Position numbers and translations under genes: made by a program. This document shows positions 13,476 through 26,864 of a stretch of 27,425 nt of DNA, piece after piece; within the stretch, counting starts at the first letter, position 1; the number at the start of each line of letters is the position of its first letter. The notes below the pieces were generated by a model, which was given only the letters and a program-made list of their open reading frames with translations, made no database searches and was not told where the DNA came from. Source of the DNA: Promethearchaeota archaeon (GTDB taxonomy: Archaea; Asgardarchaeota; Lokiarchaeia; Sigyniarchaeales; SOKP01); NCBI GenBank assembly GCA_016839745.1, contig JAEOTS010000076.1, positions 1 through 27,425 of the forward strand, in the 5' to 3' direction.

Positions 13476-14162
13476 ATGAAAAGGATTGGAATATTAGGAG
13501 GTATGTCATATGAATCAACCATAAAATACTACGATTTGATTCTTCAGAAGTATTATGATAGATATCAAGATTACTATTATCCAGAAATTCTAATTTATAG
13601 CCTCAATTTTCAAAAATTAATCGATTGCGAATTGGGTGACGACGAGGGTATTTATGTGAACTATTTGATGACTGGTATTAATTCTTTACAAAATGGGGGA
13701 GTAAATTTTATACTTATGGCAGCAAATTCACCTCATGCTGTTTATGATAAATTAGTTCAAAAATCAAAAGTCCCAATACTAAGTATTGTAGAAGCCACAG
13801 CTAAAAAAGCGCAACAAGAGAATTTAAGAAAGCTTTTATTACTAGGTATAAAATTTACGATGCAGTCTTCATTCTACAAAGAATATTTTGCGAAATCAGA
13901 TATGGAAGTCATAACCCCTTTAGACTCAGAACAAGATATAGTAAACCAAATAATTTTTGATGAGTTAGTGATTGGTAAGTTTACAAAGGAGAGCAAACAA
14001 ATGCTCTTAAAAATCATAAATAACTACAATGTTGATGGTGTGATTCTTGGATGTACTGAACTGCCTTTAATACTCCAACAAAATGATACTGATGTAATAT
14101 TGCTCGATACAGTAGAACTTCATGTAGAAGCCGCACTACAATATTATTTAGATCAGAGTTGA
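13476..14162 (+). CDS. Aspartate/glutamate racemase family protein (RacX/YgeA-like)
   Basis: Motifs MKRIGILGGMSYEST, AANSPH, LLLG and VILGCTELP. ATG 13476 is preferred over 13449 because GGAGG precedes it and it gives the family-typical N-terminus. Confidence 0.9.
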   Translation: MKRIGILGGMSYESTIKYYDLILQKYYDRYQDYYYPEILIYSLNFQKLIDCELGDDEGIYVNYLMTGINSLQNGGVNFILMAANSPHAVYDKLVQKSKVPILSIVEATAKKAQQENLRKLLLLGIKFTMQSSFYKEYFAKSDMEVITPLDSEQDIVNQIIFDELVIGKFTKESKQMLLKIINNYNVDGVILGCTELPLILQQNDTDVILLDTVELHVEAALQYYLDQS

Positions 14163-22922: not shown

Positions 22923-24830
22923 ATGTACGCACAAAAACCACCAAGTCGCCACATTCCAGGAATTATATCGTACGTGGATTATTTTTCTACAAAAAAATCA
23001 GCATATGTATTATTCTTTAGCCTACCAGCTATTATTAGTTTTTTATCCTTTATTCTGAATTCATTATATACAAACATCTGGAATTTTTTTTACCTTTTTA
23101 ATGTATTACTTACAATTTATTCCACTTCTGGAGGAGGAGTAATAATATCGATTTTTTTTTTCTCTAAAAAATCACCTCTCCTATCTCCACCACCAAAAGG
23201 ATGGGCTTTTCAAATGAACTCTCTTTTTACTGGACTTATGGGACTTTCACTGTTAATTGGCCAAACTATTACTATTTTCCTTAGAAATGTAGCCTTTCAG
23301 GAAGTATTTCTTATCCTTGGCACAATTATTTCTTTCATCATTACATATGTCGTATATTATTCCTTCACGACCGTGGGAAAATATGGGAATTTTATCTTGG
23401 CATTTGTTCAACCCGCGATTGAAATTACTTTCTATAGTATTTTCGCATCACAACTCCCTTTTTTATTTTTCAGTAGAGCAATCTTATTTTTTACTATATG
23501 TGCTCTTATTTTTGCTATTCCTTATGCGAGAAGTTTATCTCGAGTAAGTAATGTATACAGGCAAGCAACTGGGATGGGGGGATATCCGTTTATTAGAGCA
23601 TTCGTGCTTTCCATGCTAACGGAAGGCAATGATGAACTATTGGAGAGTTTCTTTGATAAAGTTGGAGTTTATTCTAATATTAAAATCCAATATTTAGCAA
23701 TCAGGAGCCAAAAAACCAAAAAACTTAAAGGATTGTTCGTTATCCCGCAAGTTCATTTTGGACCTTTTAAAACTTGCGGTTCTTCTGATTTACCAGCTCA
23801 TATCTATAGTACCTTTAAACAAATTAAGGGTACAACCGTATATCATACAACCAATGATCACGCGCAGAATTTAACATCCCAGAAAGAACTTGAAAAAATT
23901 TTGAGTAAAATGAAAAGCGATGTAAACTATATCCAAGAGAATTCAAACATCAAATGGGAAAAAGAAGTAAATACAACATCGAGAAATATGTCCAATTCCG
24001 CTAAACTATTAGGTATAGAGATAAACAACATTGCAATTGTGTTTCTGACTAGGCATCCTTTACCTTCTGATGATATTCAGATTCAAGTTGGAGAAGAAAT
24101 TAGAAAAATAGCTAAAGAAAAAGGTTATCGTGAGATAATTATTATCGATTCGCATAATTCCATAATTGGGGACGAAGTCTTAATAAGAAATAATTCTATA
24201 GAAGCTAATGATCTCATCTCTGTTTCTAAAAAATTTTTAGTTTCTAATAAAAAAAGTGAGCTCTCTAACAAAATTGTAGTACAGTACGGAGTCGCAAAAG
24301 ATGCAATGCTCGAATATTCGGAGAAGGATGGAATTGGAACTGGTGGTTTAGTAGTTCATCTCTTTAAAGACATTGTATCAAATCAAAAAACAGTATTTAT
24401 CCACTTTGATGCTAATAATGCATATGTAGATATCCGTTCATTTGTACTAAACATGCTGCAGAATAGAGGAATAGAAAGAGGAGAAATAACAACTTCGGAT
24501 TCTCATACTGTTGCAAGGCTATTTTCACATAGGGGCTATAGCCCAATAGGTGATAAGATAACTTTAGAAACTATTTTAAAAAAGCTTGATACTCTAATTA
24601 TTGAAGCAGAGAATAATTTAGAAGAAGTTGAATTTTATTACCATGATTCTGTTGTCGAAAGAGTTAAAATTTGGGGGGATCCAAAATATTTCGAAGTTAT
24701 TATGAATACATTATTTAAATGCATAAAAGTTTCTCAAGGATTATTTACGTACAGTTTAATTATTCCTGCATTATTTTCAGTAATTCTACTTTTATTCTTT
24801 TATAACATTCCATTTAGTGCGATTTTGTAG
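22923..24830 (+). CDS. DUF2070-family membrane protein (N-terminal TM bundle plus putative metal-dependent hydrolase-like domain)
   Basis: About 6 N-terminal TM helices, then VHFGPF...GSSDLP, H...H..N, IIDSHN, DANN and TSDSH motifs, and a C-terminal TM helix. Confidence 0.8.
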   Translation: MYAQKPPSRHIPGIISYVDYFSTKKSAYVLFFSLPAIISFLSFILNSLYTNIWNFFYLFNVLLTIYSTSGGGVIISIFFFSKKSPLLSPPPKGWAFQMNSLFTGLMGLSLLIGQTITIFLRNVAFQEVFLILGTIISFIITYVVYYSFTTVGKYGNFILAFVQPAIEITFYSIFASQLPFLFFSRAILFFTICALIFAIPYARSLSRVSNVYRQATGMGGYPFIRAFVLSMLTEGNDELLESFFDKVGVYSNIKIQYLAIRSQKTKKLKGLFVIPQVHFGPFKTCGSSDLPAHIYSTFKQIKGTTVYHTTNDHAQNLTSQKELEKILSKMKSDVNYIQENSNIKWEKEVNTTSRNMSNSAKLLGIEINNIAIVFLTRHPLPSDDIQIQVGEEIRKIAKEKGYREIIIIDSHNSIIGDEVLIRNNSIEANDLISVSKKFLVSNKKSELSNKIVVQYGVAKDAMLEYSEKDGIGTGGLVVHLFKDIVSNQKTVFIHFDANNAYVDIRSFVLNMLQNRGIERGEITTSDSHTVARLFSHRGYSPIGDKITLETILKKLDTLIIEAENNLEEVEFYYHDSVVERVKIWGDPKYFEVIMNTLFKCIKVSQGLFTYSLIIPALFSVILLLFFYNIPFSAIL

Positions 24831-24841
24831 GGTAAGAGCTC

Positions 24842-24890
24842 TCACTTTTTTAACATATGATCTATATATTACAGAGATATATGTAAGTGA
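24842..24890. promoter_or_regulatory. Imperfect inverted repeat upstream of the GTPase operon (candidate operator or hairpin)
   Basis: TCACTT/AAGTGA, ACATAT/ATATGT and ATCT/AGAT pair, giving 16 bp with two bulges around an 11-nt centre. Confidence 0.4.
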
Positions 24891-24925
24891 TTTGACCTTT
24901 TTTCTTTAAAAATATTCTTTTCGTT

Positions 24926-25474
24926 ATGAAATATGAAATGTTGAGTTCAGAAATTTCAAAATTGATGAAGGTTACATTCATAGGTTCACCCGCAGTCGGA
25001 AAAACAACTATGCTAAGACTTCTTTCAAAGGATATGATTGACAGATTTTATTTTCCTACCCATGGTTTTGACTTAAAAACGATTAAATTAGATGAATATC
25101 ATATCCGTATATGGGATTTTGGAGGACAGCATAGTTATTTCAAAACTTATTCAAGAGATTATCTACTAGGATCAGATGTCATTTTTGTTGTAACTGATTC
25201 TACTCCAAGCAATGTTTTAAATTCTAGAGAGCTGATCAATTACGCTACACATTTTGTTGATACAGACTGTCCAATAGTTGCCATAGCAAACAAACAAGAT
25301 TTACACAAAAACGATGGTCGAATGACTCCCGAAAGAGTGGAAGAAATTCTTCATATTAAAACATACGGACTTACAGCAATAAACCCTACTGAAAGAAATA
25401 AATTAATGGAGATTATCAGAAAAGAATTAAACAAAATTGTAATTAGAAGGAGATCAAAAAAAGATGAACTTTAA
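24926..25474 (+). CDS. Ras-superfamily small GTPase, Arf-like (Asgard type)
   Basis: G1 GSPAVGKT, G2 PTHG, G3 WDFGGQ, G4 NKQD and G5 TA. WDxGGQ and NKQD are Arf-family hallmarks. Confidence 0.93.
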   Translation: MKYEMLSSEISKLMKVTFIGSPAVGKTTMLRLLSKDMIDRFYFPTHGFDLKTIKLDEYHIRIWDFGGQHSYFKTYSRDYLLGSDVIFVVTDSTPSNVLNSRELINYATHFVDTDCPIVAIANKQDLHKNDGRMTPERVEEILHIKTYGLTAINPTERNKLMEIIRKELNKIVIRRRSKKDEL

Positions 25475-26018
25475 TGAAGATGAACTTTTCGGCGCGGCTT
25501 TAATAGGTTTCGATATGATCGACGGCCCTTTCCTTAAATGGAAAAAAGAATATGGAAACCCTACAAATCTTATGAAATTAGATGATTTTGCTATGAATTT
25601 TTATTTGGCTTTTCGAGGAGGTAATGCTGGGAAAAAACCAAGAGCGATTTTGTACGATAAATTTTACATCGTAGCATTCCCAAACGACCTAGAACTCTGT
25701 TGTTTATTTATGAAACCACAAGGAATTGATAGAAATATTAAGCAGCTTAACAAGATTGCAACTAGAATTATTCACGAAATGGATGTGGACGAAGAAGAAA
25801 ATGATGTCCCAACTGTATCCAACGAGAACACAATTGAAGAAATGAAACGTTTAATTGTGAATCTATTGAGCGGTATAGAAATGCCTACTCCTGAGATAAA
25901 GAAATATTTCAAATTAAGTAACTCGCAGATATATAAGGTCATGGCTGACTTAGAAAATTCTCGAAAGGTAAAACGCGCAAGGAAAGAAGGTAGAACTATA
26001 TTATGGACAGCTAACTAG
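25464..26018 (+). CDS. Putative longin/uDENN-like domain fused to a C-terminal winged helix-turn-helix
   Basis: N-terminal hhhhFDxxxGP hairpin (GAALIGFDMIDGPFLKW), helix, strands FYIVAF and LCCLFM, then a helix. Acidic linker DVDEEEND. wHTH IVNLLSGIEMPTPEIKKYFKLSNSQIYKVMADLENSRKVKR...GRTILW. Overlaps the GTPase gene by 11 nt. Confidence 0.75.
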   Translation: MNFNEDELFGAALIGFDMIDGPFLKWKKEYGNPTNLMKLDDFAMNFYLAFRGGNAGKKPRAILYDKFYIVAFPNDLELCCLFMKPQGIDRNIKQLNKIATRIIHEMDVDEEENDVPTVSNENTIEEMKRLIVNLLSGIEMPTPEIKKYFKLSNSQIYKVMADLENSRKVKRARKEGRTILWTAN

Positions 26019-26054
26019 TTTTTTTTCTAATTTTTTATATTTTTAATAAATTAA

Positions 26055-26864
26055 TTACATAAGGTTATGTTTCCAGTTTTTCATTTTTGTATAATACCTC
26101 GAAAACATAATATAACAAATATCAGGCAATTCCTTATCTAGATTATTTAATATGATATATCGGAGAATATGATTGATTAGGAAAATACCCAGAAATTCCA
26201 TGTGATAACTACCTACTTTTTTAGAGAGTACTCCACCTGTATAAGCTATATTTAGTTTCTCCTGATTATCGTAGGTTAATTCAATAAAGATTCCTGGAAA
26301 AACTTCTTTTTTGAATCTCCATCCATTTTCTGTATTCCAGACTTTAGCACCCAAAAAGGAAGCGAGCTTTTTCTGATCTTTATCTTTTAATAAGGAAAAT
26401 GGCTCTAATCGTTGGATTAATACCTTTTTCATTAAATCTGTTTTTGTATCGTAAGATTTCTCAAAAGGTTCTTTATGATTAATCATTCTTTCTATAAAAT
26501 CAAAGATGATATCAACGAAGGTTATGCTATCTTCACCAGGTACGATTATCGCTCTTTCTCCGGAAAAATAACACTTAAATTCAGCTGTAATGCCATCTCC
26601 AAATTCATCTCCAAAATAAGAATAAGTTAAATGAATATTTACTTCAGGAAACATTTCTAATGTAATCGTCCAATCTTCGTTGAGACCAATATTTTCTATT
26701 TTGCCTCCAATATCCTCTGAAATTATCTTCTTTAGCGTATCCATATTTATATCAACGAAAAGTTGAAATTTAGCTTTGCTAATATCTTCTAATTCCTTAA
26801 CATGTGGGCCCGTTACCCCAGTGGCATCAATTTGTCCAACAGTCCAATATTTTGATCTAGTAAT
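26055..26864 (-). CDS. Hypothetical protein with two tandem DUF3786-like repeats; probable ATT start 40 codons upstream of the first ATG (26744)
   Basis: The frame is open from a TAG near 26894 with no ATG/GTG/TTG before 26744. An AGGTGG SD lies 8 nt before ATT 26864. Internal repeat GGKI...WTITLEMFPEVNIHLTY versus GAKV...WRFKKEVFPGIFIELTY. GDEF and PGED resemble DUF3786 motifs. Confidence 0.65.
   Translation of the reverse strand: MTRSKYWTVGQIDATGVTGPHVKELEDISKAKFQLFVDINMDTLKKIISEDIGGKIENIGLNEDWTITLEMFPEVNIHLTYSYFGDEFGDGITAEFKCYFSGERAIIVPGEDSITFVDIIFDFIERMINHKEPFEKSYDTKTDLMKKVLIQRLEPFSLLKDKDQKKLASFLGAKVWNTENGWRFKKEVFPGIFIELTYDNQEKLNIAYTGGVLSKKVGSYHMEFLGIFLINHILRYIILNNLDKELPDICYIMFSRYYTKMKNWKHNLM

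Follow-up and report, generated by a model that had tools for sequence, protein, structure and literature searches.

In eukaryotes, longin-domain GTPase-activating proteins (GAPs) have small GTPases as their clients, that is, Arf with C9orf72-SMCR8 and Rag with both FLCN-FNIP and the NPRL2-NPRL3 pair of GATOR1. FLCN, NPRL2, SMCR8, and C9orf72 carry what has been described as a 'GP motif', located where the beta1-beta2 loop ends or beta2 starts, and reported to be specific to GAP longins (PMC12290439). In C9orf72 it is found as part of WDx3GP, the WD pair of which is required for ARF1 GAP activity (PMC8213707). Asgard archaea as well are reported to possess GP-motif longins, of FLCN/SMCR8 type, the client GTPases of which are openly stated as unknown (PMC12290439). 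NPRL2-like longins, along with a LAMTOR1-like/Rab-like/DENN operon, also have been reported from these archaea (10.1101/2020.10.19.343400), and for Group 3 MglA a small-GTPase operon with a REC-like and winged helix-turn-helix (wHTH) protein has been predicted (PMC4316618). A small GTPase beside a roadblock or longin regulator is, in other words, a known prokaryotic and Asgard theme. Considered here is a variation on that theme, found in a 27,425-nucleotide (nt) stretch of DNA from a Promethearchaeota archaeon of the Lokiarchaeia (assembly GCA_016839745.1, contig JAEOTS010000076.1, positions 1 to 27,425, forward strand), which in its entirety is 'the window'. The variation is a two-gene operon encoding an Arf-like small GTPase and a 184-amino-acid (aa) protein, the 'partner', in which a longin-type domain bearing a GP motif is joined to a winged helix.

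The GTPase gene, as an open reading frame (ORF), occupies 24926-25474 of the forward strand (182 aa) and the partner gene 25464-26018 of the same strand. As read from these ORFs, the end of the first overlaps the start of the second by 11 nt (25464-25474, +), just as had been said in an earlier note that was made from the letters of this DNA alone. An overlap, or else a direct abutment, is maintained in related loci, and the 11 nt seen here are consistent with translational coupling. Within the GTPase gene, 11 nt 5' of the partner's ATG, there is in addition an AGGAG (25448-25452, +) which may serve as a Shine-Dalgarno-like site. Following the partner's stop codon is a T-rich tract (26019-26050, +), putatively the archaeal terminator which closes the unit, and the next gene in the 3' direction is convergent (26055-26744, -; 229 aa). 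With the overlap, the internal AGGAG, the T-rich tract, and the convergence of the next gene taken together, the GTPase and partner genes therefore constitute a two-gene operon.

The association of these genes is seen also across genomes. Synteny among Asgard genomes, a comparison which the earlier note had proposed, places the GTPase gene directly upstream of the partner gene in 79 of 80 loci, with the lone exception cut by a contig end, and does so as well in all of the distant wHTH-bearing relatives (11/11), where the DUF2070, 229-aa, and RsmB genes no longer adjoin. Since the GTPase gene is retained upstream where other neighbors have changed, the pairing is specific rather than a by-product of general synteny, and the coupling of the GTPase and partner genes thus is strongly supported. 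Among proteins of 323-2000 aa no fused GTPase-longin forms were found, a negative which by itself counts as weak evidence.

All named homologues are from Asgard archaea (467 proteins at E <1e-3, with 70-93% identity across genera), and these form only 29 clusters at 50% identity. As judged by profile search, the partner family is present in 182 of 400 Asgard genomes, being close to universal in the family (122/134), order, and class to which the window belongs, and found in a few other lineages. In further classes it is only the longin domain that is matched, in proteins of approximately 112-150 aa. One of these longin-only relatives (L105) has an Arf-like GTPase upstream and four others stand alone. 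In the genome considered here the partner gene is single-copy. One contig, DATKTW010000082.1, is labeled as 'Candidatus Nanopelagicaceae bacterium' and yet has the complete Asgard neighborhood, from DUF2070 through the GTPase, the partner (at 85% identity), and the 229-aa gene to RsmB; this probably is a mis-binned or mislabeled Asgard contig.

The first of the two proteins is, as had been claimed of it, a complete small GTPase. It matches Pfam Arf (PF00025) at 67.2 bits (cut-off 22.3, E 1.7e-18), and its closest solved relatives are Arl3, Arl2, and Arf1. Across 88 distinct orthologues the G1 through G5 elements are invariant or nearly so, i.e., the GxPxVGKT of G1, the YxPT45 of switch I, the W63-D64-x-G-G-Q68 of G3, in which Q68 is the catalytic glutamine, ANKQD, and the T-A151 of G5. 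The G3 aspartate, D64, is invariant in all 88, and MglA is described as being without that aspartate (PMC4316618); the GTPase therefore is not of the MglA type. Though its ORF opens at 24926 (MKYEM...), the alignment of approximately 100 upstream regions places the conserved start at ATG 24938, and in other loci an in-frame TAA is found two codons upstream of the equivalent ATG. The protein as produced probably is one of 178 aa, and, counting from the conserved start, only about 10 residues are found N-terminal of beta1.

The partner matches no Pfam or NCBIfam family at cut-off. Its AlphaFold2 model, however, which is based on a 40-sequence alignment and has a mean predicted local distance difference test (pLDDT) of 82, resolves into three parts, and these are the parts that the earlier note had read in the letters, i.e., an N-domain bearing an FDxxxGP hairpin (residues 8-111), an acidic linker, disordered at residues 112-119 where pLDDT is <50, and a C-terminal wHTH (residues 121-184). 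In terms of the window's coordinates, the N-domain, taken as aa 1-111, is encoded by 25464-25796 (+). The acidic linker, taken as aa 104-125 and with an isoelectric point (pI) of 4.05, is encoded by 25773-25838 (+), there overlapping the end of the long helix as well as the first wHTH helix, and the basic winged helix (aa 121-184, pI 9.8), together with the stop codon, is found at 25824-26018 (+).

That the N-domain should possess a longin fold had been expected, and such a fold is what the model indicates (pLDDT ~81-82 overall and, with the domain modeled alone, 81, with a predicted template modeling score of 0.70). The topology is beta-beta-alpha-beta-beta-beta-alpha, with strands at residues 8-17 and 21-29, a helix at 39-51, strands at 61-63, 68-74, and 77-83, and a helix at 88-111. 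It is longin topology, that is, without an N-terminal helix, with a helix following beta5, and with alignments to AP sigma beginning at chain residue 1. Structural matches are almost all to longin or roadblock domains, folds that serve as platforms for GTPases, at Z values of 7-8.6, 'middling' by the tool's scale, and Foldseek E values from 3e-3. Included are COPI zeta/delta, LAMTOR2-5, dynein LC7, AP sigma, TRAPP, and Mon1-Ccz1, and further BLOC-3, MglB, C9orf72-SMCR8, GATOR1, and Asgard roadblocks. A 1617-aa protein (P0141) has nine separate stretches which match partner residues 62-94, i.e., longin beta3-beta5 (E 8e-11), and so may be built of repeats of this hairpin unit.

Invariant over 40 members, even at 20-30% identity, are F16, D17, G21, P22, Y47, F50, G53, P59, and F67. 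The first four of these belong to the hairpin, F16-D17-M-I-D-G21-P22 (25509-25529, +), with G21-P22 located on the beta1-beta2 hairpin at the start of beta2. It is at that position that the GP motif of the GAP longins has been described, and the F-D-x3-G-P spacing as well is that of C9orf72, i.e., of W33-D34...G38-P39.

For the C-terminal domain, where an ArsR/MarR-like wHTH had been predicted, structural and profile searches concur. The best structural matches are NolR (Z 10.8, with a root-mean-square deviation, rmsd, of 1.4 over 60 residues) and PH1932 (Z 10.7), with HlyU (26% identity) and MarR, both likewise at Z 10-11, CadC/CzrA, and Zalpha (Z 10.5) found as well. Of the 50 best structural matches, which are Foldseek candidates that were re-examined, nearly all are DNA- or Z-DNA-binding winged helices. 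A profile of the family as compared with PDB sequences matches Lrs14-like AbfR2 (E 0.003), AdcR, and CzrA, and Pfam scans of 40 members return HTH_11 for 16 of them (best 7e-8) along with HTH_5 (1e-7), DeoR (1e-7), and GntR. Polar or basic residues, i.e., N153, K158, R171, K174, and R177, are conserved in the recognition helix and wing. As judged from profiles and models, the winged helix is of the nucleic-acid-binding kind, closest to prokaryotic DNA-binding regulators. No solved chain among the structural matches spans both longin and winged-helix domains.

How might a GTPase and such a partner function together? The reading favored here, though tentatively and at somewhat less than an even chance, is that the GTPase is coupled to DNA by way of the longin-wHTH protein. 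The Arf-like GTPase would bind its co-translated partner at the longin domain, the docking face probably being the one that presents the FDx3GP hairpin. The partner probably would homodimerize through that same domain, since its gene is single-copy and since longin and roadblock domains dimerize. The GTP/GDP state then would be coupled, via the acidic linker and basic winged helix, to the binding of DNA or other nucleic acid, with gene regulation the most likely output. We infer, that is, a physical interaction, its dependence on GTP versus GDP, dimerization, and DNA binding, along with the link to cell division that is considered below. In the earlier note the equivalent claim was of a GTPase-gated transcription switch, and of this the coupling of the genes and the DNA-binding type of the winged helix have held, but an arginine finger is not conserved in the family.

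Various observations sit less comfortably with this coupling of GTPase to DNA. The Z values of the N-domain being middling, and effectively tied, it is the superfamily that is clear and not the subfamily, with longins and roadblocks not separated. Within the longin domain none of the Arg or Lys residues is kept in all 40 members, R51 and R60 being nearly invariant among close relatives only. Nor is an intrinsic arginine finger conserved in the GTPase, where R40 of switch I varies among the 88 orthologues, and an arginine-finger GAP mechanism therefore is unsupported. The wide structural search performed with the winged helix returns also ESCRT-II and cullin winged helices (Z 8.7-8.8), and in NPRL2/3, ESCRT-II, and cullins winged helices are protein-binding modules. 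The window's own partner, furthermore, is found below the Pfam cut-offs for HTH families (HTH_27 at 13.1 bits versus a cut-off of 22.2, and TrmB at 11.9). Lastly, no NPR2/Folliculin match is seen in Pfam scans of the 40 members (E up to 10), none results from comparing the family profile with PDB sequences, nor do PF06218 and PF11704, when searched against the genome, match the partner gene. With all three of these null for the partner, a sequence link to NPR2/Folliculin was rejected. The PF11704 search did return one weak match elsewhere in the genome (C113, E 0.007).

Some of these same observations bear on an alternative, which is that the partner is a miniature NPRL2/3-like regulator. Its longin domain would then serve as a GAP, a guanine nucleotide exchange factor, or a platform, its winged helix would be a protein-protein or dimerization module, and the pair would function, free of DNA, in membrane or nutrient signaling. 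NPRL2 and NPRL3 indeed consist of a longin followed by wHTH domains (PMC3521125, PMC3747258), Asgard archaea are rich in NPRL2-like longins (10.1101/2020.10.19.343400), and the GP motif, if specific to GAP longins as reported (PMC12290439), would point in this direction as well. GATOR1 and SEA chains, in addition, are among the structural matches of the N-domain, and in the nearest ESM-Atlas cluster (score 0.77) 19% of members carry Pfam NPR2, though this is no more than a lead. The winged helix, however, is basic and nearest to prokaryotic DNA binders rather than to the C-terminal domains of NPRL proteins, the missing NPR2/Folliculin match and the lack of an arginine finger conserved in the family tell against an NPRL2/3-like regulator too, and with one copy per genome there is no evident heterodimer partner of the NPRL2/NPRL3 type. 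On balance we consider this DNA-free alternative to be unlikely.

A different kind of evidence concerning what the GTPase and its DNA-binding-type partner may do comes from their promoter. The span given in the earlier note begins at 24842, and of it 24842-24925 is promoter rather than gene. Found there is a TATA-box-like TTTAAAAATA (24906-24915, +) that is kept across loci, is assigned as such from typical archaeal promoter spacing, and sits 23 nt 5' of ATG 24938. Because of that spacing between putative box and ATG, with the start of transcription being equally putative, the mRNA probably is leaderless or near-leaderless. Upstream of the box a block of approximately 33 bp is conserved while flanking DNA diverges, as seen with alignments of 22 and of approximately 100 upstream regions. 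In most genera of the family the consensus of this block is ATAATA-N6-TATTAT and then CnAGATTCATAT, made up of ATATTAY-like units at a spacing of about 11 nt, and 24853-24886 (+) in the window is a genus-specific version of that consensus.

The same element is found in front of ftsZ1. When a position weight matrix (PWM) is built solely from the GTPase-operon promoters that other genera possess, its best intergenic match in the window's own genome is a site 52-82 nt upstream of ftsZ1 (15.1 bits), and there are only 15 matches of at least 7 bits in that whole genome. This ftsZ1 element is found at 13698-13728 (-) of contig 94, with the ftsZ1 ATG at 13646. In five further ftsZ1 promoters from this family the PWM gives 5-16 bits, with the matches positioned at -78 to -86. 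The ftsZ1 promoters of the family carry TAATAT-N4-GATATTA...ATTCTAAT, spaced from the start codon just as in the GTPase operon (L112, L114, L121-L125). Exact ATATTAY pairs 11 nt apart number only four in the genome, two of them directly upstream of ftsZ2 and xerA, whereas at the other exact tandem sites (C157, C180) no recognizable gene is found. For sepF and actin nothing convincing is seen.

A further point tells against the partner as a reader of DNA at its own promoter. The PWM reaches 21.7 bits at the start of an operon of a ribbon-helix-helix (RHH) gene and ftsZ1, in a family from which the longin-wHTH protein is missing (0 of 19 genomes), and some factor which exists without that protein therefore reads the element. 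The region 24831-24925, named in the earlier note as the DNA for an electrophoretic mobility-shift assay with the partner, does hold the conserved element, but as this is common to ftsZ1 it probably is not the partner's private operator. Indeed, a private operator along with autoregulation was dropped as a reading, given that the PWM finds both the ftsZ1 promoters and the RHH-ftsZ1 operon of a family without the protein, and self-regulation via the 24853-24886 site is weakened. That the element is common to ftsZ1 promoters and is present in a family without the protein argues instead for the GTPase operon as probably part of a cell-division regulon. Because its promoter carries the same control element as does ftsZ1, the GTPase-partner module would most likely act in or alongside cell division.

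That division itself is directly gated by the GTPase, whether with the longin-wHTH protein reading the ATATTAY element at ftsZ1 and its own promoter or with that protein anchoring a GTPase regulator on the nucleoid, we consider to be decidedly improbable. In the first of these versions, a long shot as we see it, the partner's winged helix would itself be what binds the ATATTAY-type element, both in the operon's own promoter and upstream of ftsZ1, such that the GTPase directly gates division-gene transcription in Lokiarchaeia. The shared placement of the element, about -85 to -52 relative to the start codon in both promoters, is as would be expected, and the dyad, ATAATA-N6-TATTAT, would suit a dimeric wHTH. 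With a PWM from the window's own taxonomic family, in addition, regions upstream of distant GTPase operons outscore AT-matched promoter controls (Mann-Whitney p = 4e-5, 9 vs 56), a p-value which overstates the case because of relatedness among the loci, and the longin-only L105 locus scores low with the PWM. Against direct control of ftsZ1 by the partner, however, are the location of the strongest match, at 21.7 bits in the protein-less family, as well as the similarity of ftsZ1 promoters from genomes with versus without the longin-wHTH protein, for which no significant difference is seen (p = 0.30), along with CdrS-like RHH proteins being the obvious alternative binder. An exact 7-mer test, itself crude, finds no enrichment among distant loci (3/12 versus a background of 28-33%). 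A 19-mer pattern has matches with no mismatch, or with one mismatch and in context, only at the GTPase operon, with total counts equaling those of a reversed-pattern control, and elsewhere in the genome only weak approximate matches to the element are seen.

As to RHH genes, outside of the Lokiarchaeia a small one (YPNRSEAIR.A.RDLL), like haloarchaeal CdrS, directly precedes ftsZ1 (L128-L140; L135:214-378). The window's own genome has four RHH paralogues elsewhere, the best of which (contig 115) has ATATTAT arrays upstream. In one distant lineage (G307, contig 5), with ftsZ1 at 307807-308814 and the gene of the longin-wHTH protein at 316464-317000, the pair is no more than about 8 kb away from the RHH-ftsZ1 operon.

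In the second version the winged helix would instead hold the longin platform on the chromosome, with little preference as to sequence, such that the state of the GTPase is set in relation to the nucleoid. This would inform division or segregation spatially, by analogy with chromatin-bound RCC1 and Ran. The sharing of the promoter element with ftsZ1, the related ATATTAY arrays at ftsZ2 and xerA, and the resemblance of the basic winged helix also to structure-specific binders such as Zalpha would all be compatible with such an anchor, as would our not finding a regulon for the longin-wHTH protein itself. The anchoring of a GTPase regulator to the nucleoid is purely inferential, however, co-regulation with ftsZ is no proof of a role in division, and the highly conserved polar residues of the recognition helix fit sequence-specific binding too, such that we view it as improbable.

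Two neighbors remain to be mentioned. The 229-aa convergent gene (26055-26744) has no Pfam or NCBIfam match and is kept within the family at 55-90% identity. Upstream of the operon, on the same strand, is the gene of a DUF2070 membrane protein (635 aa; 22923-24830), which probably is outside of the GTPase-partner module because its synteny with the pair is confined to the taxonomic family to which the window belongs and disappears in more distant relatives.

In comparison with described systems, the earlier note's statement that no characterized system of this type is known was too strong, as NPRL2/3 combine longin with wHTH, as GP-motif longins are known from Asgard archaea, and as Group 3 MglA has its operon. 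In the searchable literature we found no fusion of a GP-motif longin with a prokaryotic-type wHTH, no obligate pairing of an Arf-like GTPase with the longin-wHTH family, and no promoter element shared with ftsZ1.

As with MglA-MglB, a small GTPase gene adjoins that of a roadblock/longin-superfamily regulator, and MglB is among the matches to the N-domain (Z 7.6, 15% identity). Unlike MglA, however, the GTPase here has an Arf-type WDxGGQ that includes the G3 aspartate, and, unlike with MglB, the partner's platform is of longin topology, lacking the N-terminal helix. Unlike in Group 3 MglA operons, platform and wHTH are one polypeptide. As a winged helix, the partner resembles the ArsR/SmtB, MarR, and Lrs14 regulators (Z 9-11, rmsd 1.4-2.8 over approximately 60 residues, and with an HTH sequence pattern) but is without their metal- or ligand-sensing dimerization helix, a longin domain and separate GTPase being found in place of the sensor.

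The partner is, like the Asgard NPRL2-like and FLCN/SMCR8-type GP-motif longins, small, Asgard-specific, and in possession of the GP motif. In the searchable papers such longins are described neither with a fused wHTH nor as obligately paired with an Arf-like GTPase gene. For the longin-wHTH family in particular, gene context supplies an answer to the question of the client GTPase. The operon represents a matched pair, an Arf-like GTPase with a GP-motif longin, small and single-copy, and present in cultured relatives among the Lokiarchaeia. The eukaryotic longin GAPs, i.e., GATOR1, folliculin, and C9orf72-SMCR8, control growth and lysosome signaling, and their Asgard look-alikes already have been catalogued.

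With those eukaryotic proteins (C9orf72-SMCR8, FLCN-FNIP, and GATOR1) the partner shares a longin with GP motif at the start of beta2, following an aromatic-polar pair and with the WDx3GP spacing of C9orf72. With C9orf72-SMCR8 in particular it shares a putative client, by gene context, that is Arf-like, and with NPRL2 and NPRL3 a winged helix that is C-terminal to the longin, i.e., the same domain order. It differs from eukaryotic longin GAPs in being only 184 aa and single-copy, such that any dimer would be a homodimer, in lacking DENN, TINI, or INT parts, in sharing an operon with its GTPase, and in having neither a family-wide arginine finger nor a Pfam NPR2/Folliculin match. From NPRL2 and NPRL3 it differs also in having one winged helix only, and that of prokaryotic DNA-binding type. 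The fused winged helix and the ftsZ1-shared element together suggest a switch that, prior to eukaryotes, was wired to DNA and cell division rather than to membranes, which bears on how NPRL2/3 gained their winged helices. Were an Arf-like GTPase in fact to gate division directly, then this would be a prokaryotic forerunner of chromatin-wired GTPase control, as seen with Ran-RCC1, rather than of control that is membrane-wired.

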